Assembly (NCBI GenBank): GCA_964424195.1
Contig: CAYRHT010000001.1
Span: 6,102-70,101 of the forward strand
Length of the DNA stretch: 64,000 nucleotides
From: an uncultured Gammaproteobacteria bacterium
GTDB lineage: Bacteria; Patescibacteriota; Patescibacteriia; UBA1558; S5-K13
Direction: 5' to 3'
Shown: positions 1-9,338 of the stretch, piece after piece
Layout: each line of letters starts with the position of its first letter
Numbering within the stretch: position 1 is the stretch's first letter
The notes under the pieces: generated by a model
Told to the model about the DNA's origin: nothing
The model's database searches: none
Seen by the model: only the letters and a program-made list of their open reading frames with translations
Position numbers and translations under genes: made by a program

Positions 1-445
1 TTGCCACTCTCTGTTTTTCGCCTCCACTTAAATTATCAGCAGTTTCATCTATTTTATGTTTGAGCCCGACAAGCTCAACTATATTTTTAATCATCTCTTT
101 TTTATTTTCTTTTTTTATTTCGTTTCTGGGGTGAATTGCCAAATAAACATTATCAGAAACAGAAAGCGAAGGAATAATTTTAAAGTCTTGAAAAACAATA
201 CCGATATTCAAAAGGCGAAAACTGGCTAATTTTTCTTCATCAAAATCAGTAATATCTTGCCCCTCAAAAAAAATCTTTCCTTCGTCTGGTTTGACTAATC
301 CTGACAAAATAGAAAGCAGGGTAGTTTTTCCAGTTCCAGATTTTCCGATAATACTTACAAACTCTTTTTCTTTAATAAAAAAATCAAGATTTTTTAAAAT
401 TTGTTGCTTGCCGTATTTTTTAGATATTGATTGCAATTTAAGCAT
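1..445 (-). CDS. ABC transporter ATP-binding protein (N-terminal part; C-terminus cut by the window edge)
   Basis: The minus-strand translation starts MLKLQSISKKYGKQQILKNLDFFIKEKEFVSIIGKSGTGKTTLLSILSG..., which carries a Walker A motif (GKSGTGKTT). The reading frame stays open to position 1. The + strand ORF 291..479 is antisense to it. Confidence 0.75.
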   Translation of the reverse strand, partial: MLKLQSISKKYGKQQILKNLDFFIKEKEFVSIIGKSGTGKTTLLSILSGLVKPDEGKIFFEGQDITDFDEEKLASFRLLNIGIVFQDFKIIPSLSVSDNVYLAIHPRNEIKKENKKEMIKNIVELVGLKHKIDETADNLSGGEKQRVA

Positions 446-446
446 A

Positions 447-722
447 TTATTTTTTATAAAGATTAATAATTCTTTTTAGATTTTTTATTTTTTCATCAGA
501 CACTTTTTTGCCAGACAAAAATTCATTCAAAACAAATCCTTCTAAAGTTTTGGATCGCAAAGTATCAAAAGATTTAGCAATGGAAGTTGTAAGTTGGGCA
601 ATTTCTCCGCAACACTTACCTTGCTCAAGATATTTTTTAAGTGTTTCAATTTGTCCCTGAATTCGGTTTAAATGATGAATATTTTTTTGTCGCCTTACTT
701 TTATATCTTCAGTGATTTTCAT
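447..722 (-). CDS. CsoR/RcnR/FrmR-family metal-sensing transcriptional repressor (DUF156)
   Basis: 91 aa. It contains the KNIHHLNRIQGQIETLKKYLEQGKCCGEIAQL region typical of CsoR-like four-helix-bundle repressors, with His and Cys metal ligands. Its stop is 2 nt from the ABC ATPase start, so the two are likely co-transcribed. Confidence 0.65.
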   Translation of the reverse strand: MKITEDIKVRRQKNIHHLNRIQGQIETLKKYLEQGKCCGEIAQLTTSIAKSFDTLRSKTLEGFVLNEFLSGKKVSDEKIKNLKRIINLYKK

Positions 723-745
723 AGTACAATTTAATTTTATAAAAT

Positions 746-762
746 ATACCCCTACCCCTATA
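746..762. promoter_or_regulatory. Poly-C/G direct-repeat candidate operator (TA-CCCC-TA-CCCC-TA) just upstream of the CsoR-like gene
   Basis: ATACCCCTACCCCTAT lies 25 bp upstream of the repressor start on the minus strand. CsoR/RcnR-type operators are G/C tracts flanked by AT-rich arms. Confidence 0.35.
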
Positions 763-975
763 TATTATAGCAAAAAAAATACGAAGTCAAATTTTATAAA
801 ATCGTTTTCGTAGCGTAGAGAAGAAAATATCTTGTTTCCTCTAAAATTTAAAAAACATTTTTTGCGTAGGTACGGAGCAAAAAATATCCGCTTATCCCCT
901 TTATAAATAAAAGAAAAAGAAATTTGAAAATTTTTTAAAACAATTGGGCGATAGCCCTAAAAAGAAAAGGAATAT

Positions 976-1120
976 TTCAGCTAACGTTTCGGCATATCTG
1001 AAGTTGCGTAGCAATTTGGGTGGAGGCTTTTGCAAAAAGCCGTAACCAGATATGCCGTGTTAGATGATGTAATTAAAAGTTTTTGTTTTGCGATAGCAAA
1101 ACATTATTTGGGGCTATTTT
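976..1120 (+). repeat. Structured intergenic repeat, copy 1: CTAAC box, 10-bp stem GGCATATCTG/CAGATATGCC, inner hairpin GGCTTTTGCAAAAAGCC, GTTAGAT box, tail ...TTTTGCGATAGCAAAA...TATTTGGGGCTATTTTTT
   Basis: Direct inspection. It shares about 80% identity with copies at 2471-2622 and 5049-5135. The outer stem is perfectly self-complementary. Confidence 0.8.
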
Positions 1121-2404
1121 TTAAATATTCGTTTTCTTCCATGTTTCTTCTGGGTCAGGCATTGCATTAAATTGGTCTACAAAATTATTGTACTGTTCTT
1201 CGGTGATGGTAATTTGTTTTGAGCCATCAGCAGAATAATAACTATATGTATTATCTGGATTTTGTTGTGCGGTTTCAATGATACGTTTTAACGGTTCTCT
1301 TTTTTCTCTATATCCAGAAGCATAATTTGCAACCCCATCAATATTATATCCATGATAATCTAAATTTCTGTCTGATTTCATTTTTTTATATTCATCTCTT
1401 TGTTGCAATGCCTGATAAAATCTTTTTGCGTCTTCTGTAGAGGCAAAATTAGCAACAAAACGGGTTGTTTCGCTGTCTGGTTTTAAATCAACTTGGTGTG
1501 TTTTTTGAACATCGAGATGTTTGAATGCGATAGGAATTTTTTCGCTTTTTGCTAATTCAAATGCTAGATCACGCAATTCTTCCATGTTATCCAGGGGGAT
1601 GTCAAAGTAAATTCTTTCTTTTCCCCATTCCAATTGACCAGATTCTTTTAATTTTTTAGCCGCCGCATTTCCATATTCATACCAAAAAACACCAATATCC
1701 GTTTCTCCATTTTTAATTTTAAAGTCCTCAAAATCTTTATCCTCCAAACCCTCATAGTTTTGTCGCGAATTTTGCTCGGGTGTTGTTAGGCTATCACCCT
1801 GAATTTCTTGTTTAGGAATGCCGAGCTCTTCACGAATGGTGTTTGCTTTTTCCTGGTCGTCAATCTTGCTCTTACTTTCTAAAACGTTAAAAGACAATCT
1901 TTGCGCTAGATTATTATAAACGCTTTTGTCTATATTTTTGGCAATATCAAAAGAGAATGGTTTTTCTGGATTATCTTTTTTAAAATCTTCATAGCTCGAT
2001 TTTAATTTTTGAAGCACAAAAGATTCTTCGGGTGATAAATCATCAATTTCTCTTTTCCCTTGAATGCACTCTGTTAAAATTTTTGCTGCATCTTTTTGAG
2101 CATCGGGAAATTTTGTTTTTTGCTCATCAGATAGACCGGAGTATTGCTGTTTTAATTTCTCATCTTTTTGTGCTTCTCGGTCTTGCTCTGCTTTTCTGAT
2201 TTCTTCTAGCGCATTTTGTCTTCTTTCTGTTTCCGATTTATTTTTAGCTTCATCAATATAAATTGGATTTTGCCAAAGCTCGTCTACTATTTCGCTCGGC
2301 ATTCCTTTATACTGCGGAGGAATAGTACTTTGTTTTTCTTCCATATTTTCTGTTGGATCAGCCTCTTGATTTAAATTGTTGTATTGTTGTTCTGGTGATT
2401 TCAT
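1121..2404 (-). CDS. Hypothetical acidic, K/E/D-rich protein (427 aa), a cassette-like ORF
   Basis: Long ORF with no recognisable motif. It is bounded on both sides by the inverted repeat GGGGCTATTTTTTAAATATTC, which overlaps the stop codon on one side and abuts the start codon on the other. Confidence 0.55.
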   Translation of the reverse strand: MKSPEQQYNNLNQEADPTENMEEKQSTIPPQYKGMPSEIVDELWQNPIYIDEAKNKSETERRQNALEEIRKAEQDREAQKDEKLKQQYSGLSDEQKTKFPDAQKDAAKILTECIQGKREIDDLSPEESFVLQKLKSSYEDFKKDNPEKPFSFDIAKNIDKSVYNNLAQRLSFNVLESKSKIDDQEKANTIREELGIPKQEIQGDSLTTPEQNSRQNYEGLEDKDFEDFKIKNGETDIGVFWYEYGNAAAKKLKESGQLEWGKERIYFDIPLDNMEELRDLAFELAKSEKIPIAFKHLDVQKTHQVDLKPDSETTRFVANFASTEDAKRFYQALQQRDEYKKMKSDRNLDYHGYNIDGVANYASGYREKREPLKRIIETAQQNPDNTYSYYSADGSKQITITEEQYNNFVDQFNAMPDPEETWKKTNI

Positions 2405-2470
2405 AAAGAATATTTAAAAAATAGCCCCAAATAATAAATTTTCGAAGAAAATTTAAAAACTTTTAATTAT

Positions 2471-2622
2471 TTCAGCTAACATTCGCGTGTATGAGAAGTT
2501 TGCGAAGCAAATTTGGGCGAAGGCTTTTGTAAAAAGCCGTAGCCTCATACACGCTGTTGTACGATGTAATGAAAAGTTTTAATTTTGCGATAGCAAAATA
2601 TTTGGGGCTATATTTTTTAATT
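2471..2622 (+). repeat. Structured intergenic repeat, copy 2: stem CGTGTATGAG/CTCATACACG, hairpin GGCTTTTGTAAAAAGCC, GTTGTAC box, tail with GCGATAGCAAAA and ATTTGGGGCTATATTTTTT
   Basis: Direct inspection. An inverted copy of the tail lies at 2405-2470, upstream of ORF 1121-2404. Confidence 0.8.
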
Positions 2623-2632
2623 TTTCCAATTT

Positions 2633-3721
2633 TTATAAATATAAATCTTTGTCTAAAAAACAAACCTTTGGTTGATTTTTTTCAAAATCCCATGAATGAA
2701 AAGAGCCACCTAAGCATTCATTCCAATAATCGCATTTTTTGCATTTTTCACAAGCAGTACGATTTTTGTCTCTAAAAAAATCAAATTTATTATTCCAAAT
2801 ATCTGAAAAAGAATCTTTTTTAATGTTTCCTTGTATAAGATTACTTTGTCTTGGAACATTCGGGCAAACAAAAATATCGCCATTATGGAGGATGCTTCCA
2901 ATATTAATTCCTGTTCCGCAGTAGAAAAAATTATTTCTTACTTCATCTTCAAAGTTATCGCCTAAAAAATGAGCGCACCCAAAGGTAATTTTTACTTTTG
3001 ATTTTTTCGCTCGCTTATTTTTCATAAATTGTAAAAATTTCGTAAATTGCTCTTTGTTAAGAAGAATGTCGTTATTACAAATAGCTCTTCCAATTGGATC
3101 TACATTTAAAAGACGCCAATCACTAATTCCTAAAGCAGAAAATGTGTCATACATTTCATCTAAAATATTAATATTATTTTTATGAACAGTTGTTGTAATT
3201 CGAAGTGGGTTTAAAAAATCAGCTTTTGCAAAAAGCCCAATAGCATTTATTGCTTTTTCATAAGCACCTTTTGTGTTGCGAAATTCATCATGAACCTCTC
3301 TGATTCCATCAATACTTATATCAATCGTTATCATGCCAGCATCTTTGGCTTTTTCAACAATTTCTTGAGTAACAAGTGAACCATTAGAAACCATTCCCCA
3401 TTGAAAACCGAGGGAATTGGCATATTTCATAACTTCAAAAAGATCTTTCCGCAAAAGAGGCTCGCCTCCTGTTATTGCTATAGTAATTTTTTTTGCATCA
3501 AAATTTTGAGCAATATCTAATAAAGCTTTTTTAATTTCTTCAGTGCTAATAACTTCAGTAAAAATATTTTCACCAGCACGACTTCCGCAGTGTTTACATT
3601 TAAAATTACAATTCAAAGTACACTCCCAAAAAAGATATTTGAGTTCATGGTTTTCTCGAAGGTACTCACGATGTGCTTGCCACATCTTTTGTCTCCCTAG
3701 TTTAAGAATTTTTTTTAGCAT
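2633..3721 (-). CDS. Radical SAM enzyme with C-terminal SPASM-type auxiliary Fe-S domain
   Basis: The CNFKCKHCGSRAG motif (CxxxCxxC) sits near the N-terminus. A Cys-rich C-terminus (CEKCKKCDYWNEC...) matches SPASM/twitch domains of peptide-modifying or anSME-like rSAM maturases. Confidence 0.75.
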   Translation of the reverse strand: MLKKILKLGRQKMWQAHREYLRENHELKYLFWECTLNCNFKCKHCGSRAGENIFTEVISTEEIKKALLDIAQNFDAKKITIAITGGEPLLRKDLFEVMKYANSLGFQWGMVSNGSLVTQEIVEKAKDAGMITIDISIDGIREVHDEFRNTKGAYEKAINAIGLFAKADFLNPLRITTTVHKNNINILDEMYDTFSALGISDWRLLNVDPIGRAICNNDILLNKEQFTKFLQFMKNKRAKKSKVKITFGCAHFLGDNFEDEVRNNFFYCGTGINIGSILHNGDIFVCPNVPRQSNLIQGNIKKDSFSDIWNNKFDFFRDKNRTACEKCKKCDYWNECLGGSFHSWDFEKNQPKVCFLDKDLYL

Positions 3722-3980
3722 TTTTTCTACTTCGTTTGATAAAAATAACTGTCCCGATAATTATAGCCAAAACAATTATTATGACCATAACAATTGGTGA
3801 AAGAATTACAGAAAGTATTCTTTCCCATAAGGTTGGCTCAGATATAAAACCAATACCATACTCCGGCATTGGCTCGATACCATAAAGCGTTTGCATTTGT
3901 GCAGACATCCCAGTCTGATTGAAAGCAAATGCCATAAATGAACCAAAAATATACAAGAATGTTTTTTTGATTTTTTTCAT
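3702..3980 (-). CDS. Small membrane-anchored peptide (92 aa) encoded immediately upstream of the rSAM-SPASM gene and overlapping it by 20 nt
   Basis: N-terminal hydrophobic signal-like segment, a central MPEYGIGFISEPTLWE segment, a C-terminal TM helix and a basic tail. Translationally coupled to the rSAM gene. Confidence 0.45.
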   Translation of the reverse strand: MKKIKKTFLYIFGSFMAFAFNQTGMSAQMQTLYGIEPMPEYGIGFISEPTLWERILSVILSPIVMVIIIVLAIIIGTVIFIKRSRKNAKKNS

Positions 3981-4007
3981 AGTTTTTTAGTTATTAATAA
4001 TAAAAAT

Positions 4008-4275
4008 TTAAAAATATAGCCCCAAATTAATTTCTGAAAGAAATTATAAAACTTTTCATTATTTCGTACAACGTCTCGGGATATGAGAAGTCCCGATGTT
4101 TTTATTTACTTTAACTTTATATTATCAAATTCCCTTCTTAAGGGGTAATTGTATTTTTAAATTATATTAGTAAATCGGGATTTGAGTGAAAGAAATATAG
4201 CGACCTTAAAACAATCTAATAGATGCTGTATTTCTAGAACCTCATATTCGGTGTTGTACGATGTAAATTTTTTAT
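4008..4275 (+). repeat. Structured intergenic repeat, copy 3 (disrupted)
   Basis: 4008-4063 is an inverted tail fragment (AAAAATATAGCCCCAAAT...). The 5' stem half CGGGATATGAG is at 4076-4090 and the 3' half CTCATATTCGG plus a GTTGTAC box is at 4240-4263. They are separated by ~145 bp of unrelated sequence, which contains another degenerate 5' half at 4187-4198. Confidence 0.6.
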
Positions 4276-4324
4276 TTTAATTTTAATCAAGCTATACTTT
4301 GTTTATCAAAAAAAAATTGATTTT

Positions 4325-4957
4325 TTATTTTTTATCTTGTTCATTTACTTCATTTAAAATATGTTTTGTAAGTTCATTTGCTCTAATTATTTTTATGTCA
4401 GGAAACATTTTTCTTAGTTCATCCACTAAAGGATATAATCTCGTATTAACTACTATTACTCCAATGTTTGCTTCCCATGCCAATCTTTCTCCATTTTGAT
4501 TACTACCTATTATTGTACCCTTTCCAATTTTATTGCCTTTAATTTTATGAAAAATAGACTTATCTTTATTTAAAGATTGATTGTATGGAGAAAGAATTAA
4601 AAATGAACCCATAGTATAACTTCTACATTGACTTGTTTTTAGCTTTCCTTTCCACCCCATTATGGTTTTATTCTGAGCAATATTTATTGCTGCTGCTAGT
4701 TGTTCAATTTCACTATTTCTAGTTATGCCATGACCCTCATATTTTTTGAGTATATCTTCAGGAAGTAAGTTGACAAATTTTGCTATAGCTTCTTTTTCAC
4801 CAAAAACTTCATCCATTTCTTCATTATCACATTGTTCATTTTGAATTCTTTCTTTATATTTTTCAAGAAGCTTAGTAGCTAATTCAAATGACTCATTGTA
4901 TGGAGCGAATTTTTGTTGTTCATTTTTATTTTGTTTTTCAAAAGAGTATTTTTCCAT
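4325..4957 (-). CDS. Hypothetical protein (210 aa)
   Basis: Long ORF. A weak HKIKGNKIGKGTIIGSNQN segment resembles, but does not strictly match, the PLD-superfamily HxK(x)4D...GSxN motif. Confidence 0.45.
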   Translation of the reverse strand: MEKYSFEKQNKNEQQKFAPYNESFELATKLLEKYKERIQNEQCDNEEMDEVFGEKEAIAKFVNLLPEDILKKYEGHGITRNSEIEQLAAAINIAQNKTIMGWKGKLKTSQCRSYTMGSFLILSPYNQSLNKDKSIFHKIKGNKIGKGTIIGSNQNGERLAWEANIGVIVVNTRLYPLVDELRKMFPDIKIIRANELTKHILNEVNEQDKK

Positions 4958-5048
4958 AATTTTAAAATTTTCTTAAAAATTAATAAAAAATCAAATTTTT
5001 TCATGTTTAATTCTACAAATTAGAATTATTATAAATAAAATTTATTTT

Positions 5049-5190
5049 GTATAACGTTCGCGGATATGAGAAGTTGCGAAGCAATTTAGGTTGAGGCTCT
5101 GCAAGAGCCGAACCTCATATCCGCTGTTAGGCGAGGGTGAGCGACCAACGGGAGCGAAAGTGCAATGTCCCCTTGAGTTGCCACCTGAAA
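5049..5190 (+). repeat. Structured intergenic repeat, copy 4: stem GCGGATATGAG/CTCATATCCGC, hairpin GGCTCTGCAAGAGCC, core GTTAGGC, followed by a unique GC-rich tail
   Basis: Direct inspection. The GTTAGGC heptamer at 5126-5132 matches the integron core-site consensus GTTRRRY. Confidence 0.75.
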
Positions 5191-5243
5191 ATTTATTCCA
5201 TTTCTTTGAATTTTGAGAAAAACATTTGTAAAATTTTTCTTAA

Positions 5244-5738
5244 CTATTGAGTAATTTCTAAAATAAGCTTTTTAAAATGTGGGTAGTAAATCCTACCCCA
5301 AATAGGATTCTTTTCAAAATAACTCACTTCATTTGTAGAAGAATTGATAGTAACGGGAATAGTGAACCCCGCCCATTTCTTACCTGATTTTAACATTTTG
5401 CAATACTCTTTTGCGTCAGGAGTGATATTGTTTGAAATTAATACTGATATTACACCAACGCCTGATTGCAAGCCTCTTGGCCAACCATTATAATTACTGC
5501 TTGCGAAAGTAAATGCTTCAGACAAATGTTTTTCTATTAAATCAATAGTTATATTTTCGTTGCCAAAATCAGAAACAACAATAAATGTGTTCAACTGTGT
5601 AGCAAACCAGCTCCATTTAAACTTTTTTTCATAACCAATCACACTTGGTTTTCCAAGTATTTTTTCATCCTTTAGAAAAATTGATTTGGAATTAAGTTTT
5701 TCCTTAATCAAGTTTATGTTCATGTTTTTATTCTCCAT
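5244..5738 (-). CDS. Hypothetical protein (164 aa), recombinase-proximal cassette-like ORF
   Basis: ORF with no recognisable motif. Confidence 0.45.
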   Translation of the reverse strand: MENKNMNINLIKEKLNSKSIFLKDEKILGKPSVIGYEKKFKWSWFATQLNTFIVVSDFGNENITIDLIEKHLSEAFTFASSNYNGWPRGLQSGVGVISVLISNNITPDAKEYCKMLKSGKKWAGFTIPVTINSSTNEVSYFEKNPIWGRIYYPHFKKLILEITQ

Positions 5739-5832
5739 AATTATTTTAGTTAAATAATAATAATAAGTTTAATTGTATATAAATCTTTTCAAAATTCAAA
5801 GTGTTGTCTTCAAATTTTCAGATGGCAATTTC

Positions 5833-5839
5833 GCCTAAC
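5833..5839 (-). promoter_or_regulatory. GTTAGGC heptamer (minus strand) 78 bp upstream of the recombinase gene, a candidate attI-like crossover core
   Basis: It is identical to the R'-like box of repeat copy 4 at 5126-5132. It lies between the divergent recombinase gene and the first cassette-like ORF. Confidence 0.3.
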
Positions 5840-5916
5840 TCCTTATATACGAAGTTATTGACTTTTAGGTTTGAATGAACTAAGTTTTAGATGATAATTA
5901 ATAACCATAAATCATT

Positions 5917-6753
5917 ATGAAAAGCGATTTAAATGGTTCAGATCTTATTCTTAGGTTTGAGCAAGAAATGAAAATTAGAAATTTTAGTCCCAGAACAATT
6001 AAGTCCTATAGCTATTATATAACAGAAATCTTAAAATATACAAGGAAAAGTGCTCGAGATATTAATTCTCAAGATTTAAAAAACTATTTAGAATATTTAG
6101 TTGATCAAAATAAGTCTGGGTCAACTTTAAATATAGCTTATAGTGCTTTAAAACTATATTTTGGGAAGATTCTTCATCGGAGATTCTTTATTTTTTTACC
6201 TAGAGCCCAAACAGAGAAGAGATTGCCCGTGGTTTTAAGTAAAAAAGAAATAAAGAGAATTTTAGAAGGTATTGTGAATAGGAAACATAAATTAATTATT
6301 AGCTTGATTTATTCTTCCGGTTTAAGAGTTTCAGAAGTGGTGAAAATTAAAGTTCAAGATTTGAATTTTGAAAATAATACTCTTTTTATTAAACAATCAA
6401 AAGGTCAGAAAGATAGAATAACAATCTTTGCTAAAAAGTTAGGGATAGAGTTGAAAAAGTATATTAAAGATGGAAATGTGCAAGGAATTCTTTTTAAGAG
6501 TAATCAAAGTAGATTGTTAACAACAAGAACAGTCCAAAAAATATTTTCTCAGGCTTTAGAGAGTGCCGGAATAAGTAAAAAAGCTTCTTGTCATTCTTTA
6601 AGGCATTCTTTTGCTACTCATTTATTAGAAAATGGTACTAATCTTCGATATATTCAAAAATTATTAGGTCATCAAAAATTAGAAACTACTCAAATATATA
6701 CTCAAGTAGCTAGTAATAAATTAAAAGATATCAAAAATCCTTTAGATTTTTAA
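5917..6753 (+). CDS. Tyrosine site-specific recombinase (Xer/phage-integrase family, 278 aa)
   Basis: The C-terminal catalytic region HSLRHSFATHLLENGTNLRYIQKLLGHQKLETTQIYTQV contains the R..H..R..Y motif set. The protein is short, similar in size to XerC/D, and lacks the extra domain seen in classical IntI. Confidence 0.85.
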   Translation: MKSDLNGSDLILRFEQEMKIRNFSPRTIKSYSYYITEILKYTRKSARDINSQDLKNYLEYLVDQNKSGSTLNIAYSALKLYFGKILHRRFFIFLPRAQTEKRLPVVLSKKEIKRILEGIVNRKHKLIISLIYSSGLRVSEVVKIKVQDLNFENNTLFIKQSKGQKDRITIFAKKLGIELKKYIKDGNVQGILFKSNQSRLLTTRTVQKIFSQALESAGISKKASCHSLRHSFATHLLENGTNLRYIQKLLGHQKLETTQIYTQVASNKLKDIKNPLDF

Positions 6754-6819
6754 GACAAAACTCTTGACTTAAACTCTTTTTTCGGTTAGTATTCTATTAC
6801 TTATAAATATACATATATT

Positions 6820-7161
6820 ATGAAAAAAGAAGATAAGAAAACTGATGATATTCTAAATATTCAACCAGGTGATATTGTCAGAGTTCATGAAACAATTAAA
6901 GAAAAAAATACTAAGGGTGAAGAAAAACAAAGAGTTCAAGTTTTTGAAGGAATTGTTTTAGCTCATAAACATGGTAAAGAAATTGGTGCTACTATTACTG
7001 TTCGAAAAGAATCTGGTGGTATTGGTGTTGAAAAAATATTTCCCTTAAATTCTCCACTGATAGAGAAAATTGAAGTAAAAGGAAAAATTAAGTCTCGAAA
7101 GTCAAAACTTTATTACCTTAGAAACTACGAGAAAAGACTTAAGAAAGTTATTAAAAAATAG
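6820..7161 (+). CDS. rplS: 50S ribosomal protein L19
   Basis: IQPGDIVRVH...QVFEGIVLAHKHG...TVRKESGGIGVEKIFPLNSPLIEKIEVK matches the bL19 family. Confidence 0.85.
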   Translation: MKKEDKKTDDILNIQPGDIVRVHETIKEKNTKGEEKQRVQVFEGIVLAHKHGKEIGATITVRKESGGIGVEKIFPLNSPLIEKIEVKGKIKSRKSKLYYLRNYEKRLKKVIKK

Positions 7162-7186
7162 TTTTTTGAAGAGAGTTTTGTTATTC

Positions 7187-7275
7187 GCCAGAGTGGCGGA
7201 ACTGGTAGACGCGCAGGCTTGAGGGGCCTGTGAGAAATTTTTCTCGTGGAGGTTCAAGTCCTCTCTCTGGCACCA
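7187..7275 (+). tRNA. tRNA-Leu(GAG), long variable arm, CCA encoded
   Basis: Hand-folded cloverleaf. Anticodon loop CTTGAGGG gives GAG. Confidence 0.75.
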
Positions 7276-7284
7276 CATTGACAA

Positions 7285-7361
7285 GGGTCCTTGGCTCAGT
7301 TGGTTAGAGCGTCTCGTTTACACCGAGAAGGTCATAGGTTCGACTCCTATAGGACCCACCA
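7285..7361 (+). tRNA. tRNA-Val(TAC)
   Basis: GGGTCCT acceptor stem, anticodon loop TTTACAC, TTCGACT T-loop, CCA encoded. Confidence 0.8.
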
Positions 7362-7376
7362 TAAATTTCCCATTAA

Positions 7377-7453
7377 GGGCCTGTAGCTCAGTTGGCTAGA
7401 GCACCTGCTTTGCAAGCAGGGGGTCAAGGGTTCGAATCCCTTCAGGTCCACCA
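7377..7453 (+). tRNA. tRNA-Ala(TGC)
   Basis: GGGCCTG acceptor stem with a G3:T70-like pair, anticodon loop TTTGCAA, CCA encoded. Confidence 0.8.
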
Positions 7454-7635: not shown

Positions 7636-8253
7636 TTATTTTTTAAATATTTTTAAGAGTAAAATTAAAGAGAGTTGAATAATAATATTAGTAATAATCA
7701 GAGCAATAATAACTATAGCGATGTTTATTAAAAATGACCATTTAATAAAGAAGAGAATTATAAACACCCACCAGATGTTCTTTAAGTCTTGAAATGAAGG
7801 ACCAAGCATTGCTCCAACATTAAAAGATAGTAAAAGAACAATCCATCCTTGCCAAGTAATGATATTAATTTGAGATAAAATATTTAGAACTATATTGAAT
7901 ATTTCTGACCAACTGGAAATTTCATTAATTGTTAAGTAGTTAAGTAATAAATATCTATTCACCAGATAAAGGAATAAAAATCCACCCGCTATTGGTGCTA
8001 AAGAAATTAAAGCTTGGCCAATAATTGGAATTCTAGATTTAGTGTGACTAACCTGGGGTTGTTTGTGAAATATTTGAAATTTAGTAATTTTAGCACCAGT
8101 AAAAATACATAATACAGCATGAGAACTTTCATGAATAATAACTCCTAGATAGTATAACCAATGTAATACAGAGTAATTTAAATAAGAATAATTTAGATAA
8201 TTACTAAAATATCCTAAGATGCTGATGACTATAATTAATATTCCTAAATTCAT
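7636..8253 (-). CDS. Polytopic membrane protein with an HExxH motif (HESSH), a putative membrane zinc metalloprotease
   Basis: Multiple TM helices. The HESSHAVL motif sits within a hydrophobic segment. Confidence 0.5.
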   Translation of the reverse strand: MNLGILIIVISILGYFSNYLNYSYLNYSVLHWLYYLGVIIHESSHAVLCIFTGAKITKFQIFHKQPQVSHTKSRIPIIGQALISLAPIAGGFLFLYLVNRYLLLNYLTINEISSWSEIFNIVLNILSQINIITWQGWIVLLLSFNVGAMLGPSFQDLKNIWWVFIILFFIKWSFLINIAIVIIALIITNIIIQLSLILLLKIFKK

Positions 8254-8308
8254 AACGTTTGCTTGTTTGCTAAAGAGATAATATAATGAAATAAGAAGAG
8301 TTATTCAC

Positions 8309-8911
8309 TTGACTAAACTCTTATTATTTTATAACTTAAGTATACAAAAATATATGTTTAAAAAACAGGCCGGCGGAAGCCAACTTCTAGATTCTAGGGA
8401 AATATTAGAAAGTAAAATCGGACTGGGTTATGGAAATGTAGTAGCTGATTTAGGATGTGGTCCTAAAGCTTACTTTACTTTTCAATCTGCTCGAATAGTT
8501 GGAGACCGAGGAATAGTTTATGCTGTTGATATCCAGAAGCAAGTATTGTCTTCAGTAGAGAGTCATGCTAAGAATCAGAACTTAAACAATATTAAGACTG
8601 TCTGGAGTAATTTAGAAATAAGTGGAGCTACTAAAATTCAAGAGAGTTCTTTAGACTTAGCAATATTAAATAATGTCTTGTTTCAATCAGCAGATATGCC
8701 AGAGATGATTAAGGAAGCTGTTAGATTAACTAAAGCTGGCGGTAGATTATTAGTTATAGATTGGAAGAGTACTGGAGCTCCTCTGGGACCTAAAGTGGAT
8801 TTAAAAGTAAATCCAGAAAAAGTTAAAGAACTTGCTGAAGTATTTGGATTAAAGCTAGAAGAAGAGTTTGAAGCTGGACAGTATCACTTTGGTTTAATTT
8901 TTAGAAAGTAA
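8309..8911 (+). CDS. Class I SAM-dependent methyltransferase
   Basis: The VADLGCGPKAY segment matches motif I (GxGxG-like), and an acidic residue follows the next beta strand (VYAVDIQ). Confidence 0.65.
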   Translation: MTKLLLFYNLSIQKYMFKKQAGGSQLLDSREILESKIGLGYGNVVADLGCGPKAYFTFQSARIVGDRGIVYAVDIQKQVLSSVESHAKNQNLNNIKTVWSNLEISGATKIQESSLDLAILNNVLFQSADMPEMIKEAVRLTKAGGRLLVIDWKSTGAPLGPKVDLKVNPEKVKELAEVFGLKLEEEFEAGQYHFGLIFRK

Positions 8912-8924
8912 TTATATAAATAAA

Positions 8925-9338
8925 ATGTTGTTATCACTCGTTAATTTTCAGTATCTTTTTGATGCTTATCCTCCTCGAATAAAACAGGGGACTTTTTTAA
9001 CTATTATAATCTTAGCTTTAGTTTTTTTGGCTATTGCTATTGTATTAAAGTATTTGCTATCTAGAAAAACTAAATTTAAAGAAGGGTTAGATAAATATCA
9101 AAAAGAATTCTATATTAAGTTAATTAATATATTATTCACTAGTGGTTTAATTAGTCTATTTTTAATTACTTTTAGAAAATTAAGAGTTCCTTACTTTCAA
9201 ATTAGATTTGTTTTAATACTCTGGGGAGGTATTATTGTTATTTGGTTTATTACTATTCTTCAATATCAACTAACTAAAGTTCCAGAATTAAGAGAACAGG
9301 GTAAGAAAAGAAGAGAATACGAGAAGTATCTGAAATAG
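8925..9338 (+). CDS. Hypothetical membrane protein
   Basis: Three or four predicted TM helices and a basic C-terminus. Confidence 0.4.
   Translation: MLLSLVNFQYLFDAYPPRIKQGTFLTIIILALVFLAIAIVLKYLLSRKTKFKEGLDKYQKEFYIKLINILFTSGLISLFLITFRKLRVPYFQIRFVLILWGGIIVIWFITILQYQLTKVPELREQGKKRREYEKYLK

Follow-up and report, generated by a model that had tools for sequence, protein, structure and literature searches.

A probable integron-like cassette array with structured, attC-like sites beside a Xer-like recombinase in a Patescibacteria genome

Integrons, and especially the sedentary chromosomal ones with species-specific attC families such as the Vibrio VCRs, combine a recombinase gene, an attI site and a divergently read array of co-oriented cassettes that mostly hold a single open reading frame (ORF). 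Their attC sites consist of inverse core sites, RYYYAAC and GTTRRRY, placed round an imperfect palindrome, with extrahelical bases near L'' and a roughly symmetric unpaired central spacer (PMC5027507). Integron integrases are thought to owe the acquisition of the I2 helix their ability to act on folded single-stranded sites, and the ancestor proposed for integrons is a Xer-like enzyme that was hijacked by single-stranded elements (PMC7790495, PMC4792948). This additional IntI domain, a helix around patch III, is called necessary for integron recombination (PMC9668308, citing Messier and Roy 2001; also PMC7790495), and the archaeal integrons that have been reported, with 6 IntIs for 539 attCs, have IntIs that carry it (PMC9668308). 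The present text deals with a repeat family in a stretch of 64,000 nucleotides (nt) of contig CAYRHT010000001.1 (positions 6,102 to 70,101; hereafter the window, with position 1 as its first letter). These repeats are probably attC-like, structure-specific recombination sites of a chromosomal integron-like cassette array in a genome of the Patescibacteria, or Candidate Phyla Radiation (CPR).

A recombination site that adjoins the recombinase gene is also found in XerS/difSL, and the gene modules called pdif in Acinetobacter plasmids have inversely oriented Xer-type sites at their borders; a pdif site is a plain XerC/XerD duplex and is not known to have a hairpin, strand asymmetry or a dedicated attI by the recombinase. 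The CTX phage integrates as a hairpin of folded single-stranded DNA (ssDNA) that imitates dif (PMC7790495). The Xer-related recombinases of CPR bacteria have been classed as the 'Cand' subgroup and are presumed to be Xer replacements (PMC8138268), and within the limited literature searched no description of integrons or of such arrays in CPR/Patescibacteria was found.

Anatomy and covariation of the repeats

Four full copies, c1 to c4, stand on the + strand of the window at 974-1070, 2469-2567, 4061-4264 and 5044-5137, with c1 the most distant from the recombinase gene and c4 part of the cassette nearest attI; no further copy was found in the remaining 58 kb. Read 5' to 3' on this strand, a site begins with ATTTC, a 7-nt left box (RYYYAAC), a 4-nt spacer (GTYT, once ATTC) and an 11-nt stem arm of the form NNNNN-TAT-NN-G, continues with AAG, hairpin 1, TTTGGGYG, hairpin 2 and A(A/G)C, and closes with the complementary 11-nt arm, a T, a 7-nt right box (GTTRRRY) and GATGT, i.e., box, stem, three-way junction, stem, box. 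In c1 these elements are ATTTC (974-978), the left box AGCTAAC (979-985, with the putative crossover between 984 and 985), the spacer GTTT (986-989), the stem arms (990-1000 and 1047-1057), the junction hairpins (about 1001-1019 and 1025-1041), the T (1058), the right box GTTAGAT (1059-1065) and GATGT (1066-1070). The spacer ATTC belongs to c2, which has its left box at 2474-2480, its stem arms at 2485-2495 and 2544-2554 and its right box GTTGTAC at 2556-2562. The boxes of c3 are GTACAAC (4066-4072) and GTTGTAC (4253-4259), with stem arms at 4077-4087 and 4241-4251; those of c4 are GTATAAC (5049-5055) and GTTAGGC (5126-5132), with stem arms at 5060-5070 and 5114-5124.

A first reading of the window from its letters (the sequence-only reading) had proposed that compensatory base changes reveal a conserved helix in this repeat family. 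All of the stem strings that it quoted were found in place, namely GGCATATCTG (991-1000) and CAGATATGCC (1047-1056) in copy 1, CGTGTATGAG (2486-2495) and CTCATACACG (2544-2553) in copy 2, and GCGGATATGAG (5060-5070) and CTCATATCCGC (5114-5124) in copy 4. Five of the ten stem positions (1, 3, 4, 8 and 9) do vary among these three copies, always with compensation on the opposite arm, so the pairing was borne out, but the paired stem is 11 bp long and not 10. The inner hairpins (1025-1041, 2522-2538 and 5094-5108) and the tail hairpins (1085-1100, 2583-2598 and 4031-4045) are present as well. What had escaped this reading, because of a 140-nt insertion in its first inner hairpin, is c3, the stem of which (CGGGATATGAG/CTCATATTCGG) has one mismatch and one G.T pair. 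The segment 4002-4060, taken to be an inverted partial copy, is instead the left flank of c3 and the far end of the cassette that begins after copy 2; the hairpin at 4031-4045 is therefore homologous to 2437-2455 and 946-957, and its comparison with TTTTGCGATAGCAAAA had paired up parts that are not homologous. Also missed were the attC-like identity of the repeats, the adjoining tyrosine recombinase and attI.

Every copy in the window folds better than its shuffled versions (z = -4.2 to -6.2). A scan of the window against Rfam 15 at the gathering score returned only rRNA and tRNAs, and nothing in 1-6000. Naive palindrome scans with 9-bp stems proved too noisy in DNA of 30% GC and were replaced by family-specific patterns. 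The wider family was gathered along two routes: the loci L001-L008 and L207-L210 were retrieved via homologues of the recombinase protein alone, and 118 more loci came from metagenomes scanned for the left half's invariant letters. The two routes gave 128 paired elements, mostly 68-236 nt long. For a set of 145 sites from metagenomes, the partner of each left half was defined as the nearest downstream match to the invariant letters only, which avoids circularity, and the seven free stem positions were then found to be Watson-Crick paired in 85.5% of cases, as opposed to 39% on re-pairing; all seven are paired in 80 of the 145. The well-paired subset (123 sites) has 68 distinct left-arm stem sequences. 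Pairing, 93.6% in register, drops to 16-32% once the partner is shifted. In a MAFFT alignment of 38 short sites, 95.5% of the cells of the 11-bp stem are paired, and seven of the 11 pairs have changed on both sides; the covariation score is 0.413 compared with 0.136 in shuffles (none of 500 reaches it), and shifting the partner by 1-3 columns leaves no more than 0.10. RNAalifold, an independent check, returns the stem, a conserved AAG/TTT closure and the two inner hairpins, in which compensatory changes are seen. Stem mismatches at the level of chance were looked for in this larger set, and pairing lies far above chance; the covariation first noted in the window is therefore real and general. 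Selection on secondary structure rather than on primary sequence, as the sequence-only reading proposed it, is upheld by the larger collection; what that reading missed is that parts of the primary sequence, namely ATTTC, RYYYAAC, TAT..GAAG, GTTRRRY and GATGT, are strongly conserved as well.

The two strands do not fold alike. The + strand, which is antisense to the cargo, is the more stable one in 97 of 102 sites, by a mean of 2.9 kcal/mol, in a set that allowed G.T on the + strand only and is slightly biased by it. Among the stem mismatches, G.T occurs 20 times and A.C six times, and three conserved wobbles are restricted to the + strand: the spacer pair G13.T107 (36 of 38), the AAG/TTT closure (37 of 38) and a T.G in ATTTC/GATGT. 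The better folding of the + strand points to single-stranded DNA and not RNA, so that of the two levels first considered, ssDNA or RNA, the evidence now favours the former: it agrees with a bottom DNA strand that folds, as happens in integrons, and argues against a function in the cassette mRNAs.

Cassettes, attI and the recombinase

On the - strand of the window, a cassette consists of a cargo ORF followed by its own site, and in + coordinates it extends from the C of one left box (after RYYYAA) to the AA of the next. Cassette 1 (5055..5838, 784 bp) comprises c4 and an ORF at 5244-5738 (164 aa, no family match), and its ends GTTAGGC (5126-5132) and GCCTAAC (5833-5839) are complementary. Cassette 2 (4072..5054, 983 bp) comprises c3 and an ORF at 4325-4957 (210 aa, no family match). 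In cassette 3 (2480..4071, 1592 bp), c2 is joined by a radical SAM/SPASM ORF (2633-3721) and a 92-aa ORF (3702-3980); the terminal inverted repeats at 2600-2625 and 4002-4027 are 96% complementary, and the boxes GTTGTAC and GTACAAC match at 7 of 7 positions. Cassette 4 (985..2479, 1495 bp), with c1 and an ORF at 1121-2404 (427 aa, no family match), has terminal inverted repeats that are 97% (1103-1133/2405-2435) and 89% (1058-1084/2455-2481) complementary. All four are read from the - strand, and across the loci 29 of 31 cassette ORFs are encoded divergently from the recombinase. In some cassettes a GC-rich right flank, GAGGGTGAGCG..., stands in for the GATGT flank (window 5133-5195, and the flanks in L202 and L005-L008); in the window it breaks the outer helix of cassette 1.

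The boxes themselves record how the array was put together. When each right box is compared with the left box of the following site, the variable letters are complementary at 4 of 4 positions in 28 of 39 consecutive pairs (mean 3.49), as against a mean of 2.0 of 4 for the two boxes within one site and 1.76 for random pairs. The 12 nt beyond ATTTC and GATGT behave in the same manner, pairing at 9.3 of 12 positions across cassette ends versus 5.9 within a site and 5.7 at random. Complementarity thus runs across cassettes and not within sites; therefore the boxes are split by recombination and the halves are the two ends of one cassette. In L001, a single cassette of 822 bp is present twice, with unrelated sequence outside the copies, and the identity of the duplicates runs from the AAC of the left box to at most 5 nt past the next AAC (GTCTC, a common spacer of the family). 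L207 and L208 have the same recombinase protein and downstream genes (RF-1, PrmC) but entirely different arrays upstream, and between the AAC of the first site and the recombinase gene the two sequences do not differ. L208 and L210 likewise have a site in common from the AAC on, with different cargo. Judged by these comparisons, the cassettes are discrete, evidently mobile units joined between G and TT (AA and C on the other strand). The array of L207 (1-8000) has genes for MazG, peptide deformylase, HD and GrpB proteins and about 15 or more sites; that of L208 (1-2884) has hemerythrin, cupin and rubrerythrin genes. L005 and L007, at one point taken for different arrays, are one sequence with differing gene calls and were rejected as such a case.

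Between the array and the recombinase gene lies an attI-like 28-bp core (5828..5855, + strand) with a dif-like 11-6-11 layout, in which the arms ATTTCGCCTAA and ATATACGAAGT enclose CTCCTT. The arms are inverted (ATTTC.../ACTTC...), and the junction 5838/5839 coincides with the boundary between arm and central region. The first cassette supplies the left arm, which differs from genome to genome, and from C5839 rightwards the sequence is conserved in the 16 loci compared, where RYYYAA followed by CTCCTTATATACGAA is found between array and recombinase gene. The motifs AYTTC and TAT..GAAGT are common to the arms of attI and attC. Elements lie upstream of the recombinase gene in all eight loci reached via the protein alone (identities 56-100%), and 16 of the 17 loci that have both elements and a recombinase match (identities 41-100%) agree in where the elements lie and how they are oriented, a count that leaves out three loci with only spurious element calls. 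In the more distant loci L109, L101, L113, L172, L134, L135 and L182, attI is followed by a palindrome, TATACGAAGTGTTTTCGTATA, and by more TATTATACGAA repeats; they look like the accessory repeats at which integrase binds attI1, or like an operator placed over the promoter of the recombinase gene.

The recombinase (5917..6753, + strand, 278 aa) is a tyrosine recombinase, Xer-like/IntI-like, that is transcribed away from the cassette ORFs and lacks the I2 insertion specific to IntI. Pfam assigns it a Phage_integrase domain and a SAM-like N-terminal domain. It passes the XerA model NF040815 of NCBIfam (240.6 bits, cut-off 220) and fails the integron-integrase model TIGR02249 (208.3 bits in two matched stretches, cut-off 265). 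Its best sequence match in the PDB is VchIntIA (2e-44), where residues 184-203 of the query span chain residues 182-244, so that about 43 residues of the I2-bearing region are missing; in the AlphaFold model (predicted local distance difference test score 82), the helix is absent between residues 186 and 203. By fold, XerA and IntI are matched equally well, with XerA (5hxy) as the top Foldseek match. Bins of Parcubacteria, Moranbacteria and Falkowbacteria commonly contain homologues of 55-60% identity. A search of genome contigs with the recombinase alignment listed matches of at most 48% identity from many phyla, including proteins of true IntI length, and among the matches listed only L010 (Peregrinibacteria) shows a like site geometry upstream. 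There the recombinase is 45% identical to that of the window and the site (8188-8349, with the 4-nt/1-nt spacer geometry) lies 1.6 kb upstream of its gene, so the system may reach beyond Parcubacteria. In the closest relatives, FtsK (with a gamma domain) and RecA are encoded 1-5 kb downstream of the recombinase (L001 12670-16915; L002 8357-12533), and FtsK is near the recombinase gene in L001-L004, which is no more than suggestive of a site that resolves chromosome dimers under FtsK control; the neighbours in the window are rplS and three tRNAs instead (6820-7453).

Proposed mechanism and competing explanations

In the mechanism that we propose, the + strand (the bottom strand) would fold as an ssDNA hairpin that imitates a 28-bp 11-6-11 core of Xer/dif type, as its structure and strand asymmetry suggest. 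In this layout, deduced from the sequences, the R arm would be ATTTC-RYYY-AA paired with TT-RRRY-GATGT, the central region would be 6 bp of free sequence with a 3-nt bulge (T-Y-T) on the cleaved strand, and the L arm would be N-TAT-NN-GAAGT, an inner stem stacked on hairpin 1, into which GAAGT would continue. A central region free to vary would explain the covariation at stem positions 1-4; positions 5, 9 and 10 covary too, yet lie in the proposed L arm. The adjoining recombinase, associated with the sites in every examined locus, would bind both arms, cut between the A and the C of AAC and exchange one strand with its partner, either the double-stranded attI beside its own gene (insertion) or a second attC (excision in circular form). 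If integrons and the CTX phage are a guide, the asymmetric bulged centre would prevent exchange of the second strand, and replication would resolve the junction.

The likeness to integrons covers the divergent recombinase, attI and the co-oriented, mostly single-ORF cassettes, the RYYYAAC/GTTRRRY core sites round an imperfect palindrome (with AAC and GTT invariant here), the conservation of structure with free sequence, the better folding of one strand and arrays that differ between strains on one backbone; the crossover falls at the AAC/GTT triplet, so that the array boxes are hybrid, as in integrons. The differences are as follows. The recombinase has no I2 and stays under the TIGR02249 cut-off, and neither the extrahelical bases nor the roughly symmetric unpaired spacer of canonical attC sites is present; instead the 11-bp stem is continuous, and between R' and L' the strand that would be cleaved bulges by 3 nt next to the cleavage point; the sole unpaired bases are three of the four nucleotides of the spacer, which lie at the R'-L' side on the strand that folds better. 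The terminal structure is a conserved three-way junction, the R arm is extended by ATTTC/GATGT and a cassette-specific helix of at least 12 bp, about 20% of the cassettes hold cargo inside the loop, and the host belongs to the CPR. The system thus fails two defining features of integrons, the I2 domain and the extrahelical-base architecture; since its recombinase is Xer-like and without I2, it would work like an integron but is not a canonical member. Single-recombinase Xer/dif systems (archaeal XerA/dif) are approached in the XerA cut-off passed and the XerA fold match, and in the sequence layout of the attI, which has inverted arms, 28 bp arranged as 11-6-11 and its junction at the arm/centre boundary. 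As the attP(+) hairpin of CTX mimics dif, so the folded strand here would mimic that duplex site with an imperfect central region. Both Xer/dif and CTX differ from the present arrays, in which dozens of independent small cassettes stand in tandem, each with its own structured site. The pdif modules resemble the terminal inverted repeats found here and the copies with cargo between half-sites.

Several points weigh against reading the repeats as attC-like sites of the adjoining recombinase. Most metagenomic copies were gathered with a pattern that fixes ATTTC, AACGT, TAT and GAAG, and the conservation of these letters in that set is therefore by construction; the same motifs are also present independently in the copies of the window, L001 and L207-L210. 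The strand-stability set carries the slight bias mentioned above. In 26 of the 128 elements (about 20%) the stem arms are 340-1335 nt apart, often enclosing a whole ORF, and at such distances a hairpin forming from the linear array is unlikely; cargo inside the loop is not known for canonical integron cassettes, and the hairpin model fits it uncomfortably. The literature holds I2 to be necessary for attC recombination, and I2 is absent. Finally, the link between recombinase and sites is associative, drawn from their conserved adjacency. In L001, cargo-in-loop sites are seen at 1640-2267, 2362-3074, 3580-4109, 6719-7250, 8164-8787 and 8886-9284; in elements of this sort the ORF lies inside the loop on either strand, and the body of the next cassette is just 90-99 nt. 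One such ORF (L001 1886-2137) has its own TTGACA/TATGAT promoter, AGGAGG site and terminator.

The array might also be an ordinary integron array, one in which attC sites cluster without integron-integrases (CALIN), with a true I2-bearing IntI elsewhere in the genome and a neighbouring Xer-like gene that is a housekeeping one, by which the array lies by chance. The position of the recombinase above the XerA equivalog cut-off and below the integron-integrase one fits such a role, as do its core-gene-like spread through CPR at 55-60% identity, the treatment of CPR 'Cand' recombinases as Xer substitutes (PMC8138268) and the fact that most archaeal arrays are likewise without IntI (6 IntIs for the 539 attCs; PMC9668308). 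We consider it improbable, given that adjacency, orientation and the attI-like junction are kept in every examined locus, down to 41-48% identity and in varied chromosomal neighbourhoods, that attI and attC arms carry the same motifs, that no second tyrosine recombinase was found within the 64-kb window, and that the sites are without the L-box extrahelical bases recognised by I2. The widely separated arms would be at home in another scheme, in which the repeats are double-stranded, pdif-like Xer-type sites in alternating orientation whose arms are kept identical by recombination and whose hairpin never forms: left and right halves 340-1335 nt apart in about 20% of cases with ORFs in either orientation, cassettes bounded by terminal inverted repeats of at least 24 nt, and an attI that is an ordinary duplex site all suit it. 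Duplex sites do not account for the strand asymmetry (G.T wobbles on the + strand only, 97 of 102 sites stabler on one strand), and the spacers of the two half-sites differ systematically by 3 nt (4 versus 1 nt), so the halves are not equivalent as duplexes. Furthermore, inner hairpins and junction nucleotides that are conserved in structure with free sequence are unneeded by a duplex site, and duplicated cassettes bring the core with one flank only, which together make this scheme quite improbable.

Two further explanations do without recombination. Selection might act on RNA, with the repeat as a terminator, processing site or stabiliser of the cassette transcripts, since the - strand (mRNA sense) folds too (z = -4.2 to -5.0) and the extended palindrome ends in GGGGCTATTTTTT in three window copies, terminator-like on either strand. 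This is highly improbable: 29 of 31 cassette ORFs lie antisense to the strand that folds better and carries every conserved wobble, no Rfam family is matched, scans for promoters and terminators at the sites gave neither promoter enrichment nor a terminator on the - strand, and the AAC breakpoints and cross-cassette box complementarity would be left unexplained. Lastly, short intergenic, multi-copy palindromes with compensatory changes are also typical of selfish dispersed repeats, i.e., repetitive extragenic palindromes and bacterial interspersed mosaic elements (REP/BIME) or miniature inverted-repeat transposable elements (MITE), which would be unrelated to the recombinase. Such repeats are spread round the chromosome, whereas the ones here keep to one polar array by the recombinase and mark the limits of mobile cassettes; in the window, the four copies occupy 4.2 kb beside it and the remaining 58 kb hold none, all related loci repeat this clustering and polarity, target-site duplications are absent and the cassette ends are complementary. 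Of the explanations considered, this one appears the least probable by our estimate.

Within the attC-like reading, one extension is put forward tentatively and is rather doubtful at present: the recombinase may be the only Xer of the cell (of the 'Cand' subgroup), attI may also be the dif site of the chromosome, and the arrays may be single-stranded cassettes, similar to integrative mobile elements exploiting Xer (IMEX), that are stockpiled at dif. A change of sign of the GC skew at about 6 kb, considered as evidence of a terminus or origin, was rejected, since it coincides with a switch of gene strand.

Cargo, surroundings and significance

When the cassette proteins were compared with PADLOC, Pfam and NCBIfam, only the radical SAM/SPASM protein of cassette 3 was matched (TIGR04133 at 301 bits, below its cut-off; the PADLOC viperin model at 94 bits). 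Its ORF overlaps that of the 92-aa hydrophobic protein (together 2633-3980, - strand), and the two may be a peptide-maturation pair. In L002, 5.4 kb between two sites (980-6407) contain genes for a T5orf172 protein, an N6/N4 DNA methyltransferase, a DEAD/ResIII helicase and an SLFN/AlbA_2 protein, which looks like a defence system borne as a single large cassette; the cargo of the arrays would thus include defence-like and peptide-maturation genes. Past the last site of the window, the translations of 1-722 read as a metal-sensing repressor of CsoR/RcnR type (447-722, - strand) and as the end of an ABC-type ATPase. The segment 940-978 resembles the left flank of a cassette, with the hairpin GGGCGATAGCCC and then ATTTC, so the array may extend past the window edge.

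What makes the system matter is that all of the integron hallmarks occur in a widespread natural lineage together with a Xer-like recombinase without I2 and sites that are asymmetric in a different way. If the proposed reading is true, gene capture by cassettes would be extended to the CPR, in whose small genomes such systems are otherwise considered scarce, and there would be a reason why integrase-less arrays turn up in surveys that ask for an IntI with I2. Should the more tentative extension hold, with the recombinase as the only Xer and attI as dif, the system would be a living counterpart of the Xer-like ancestor proposed for integrons; hairpin-specific, single-strand-exchange recombination of cassettes would then be possible without I2, and the bulge in the central region would replace the extrahelical bases. 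The relevance to the origin of integrons is high, provided that activity is demonstrated: if the recombinase acts on these sites, that origin becomes directly testable.

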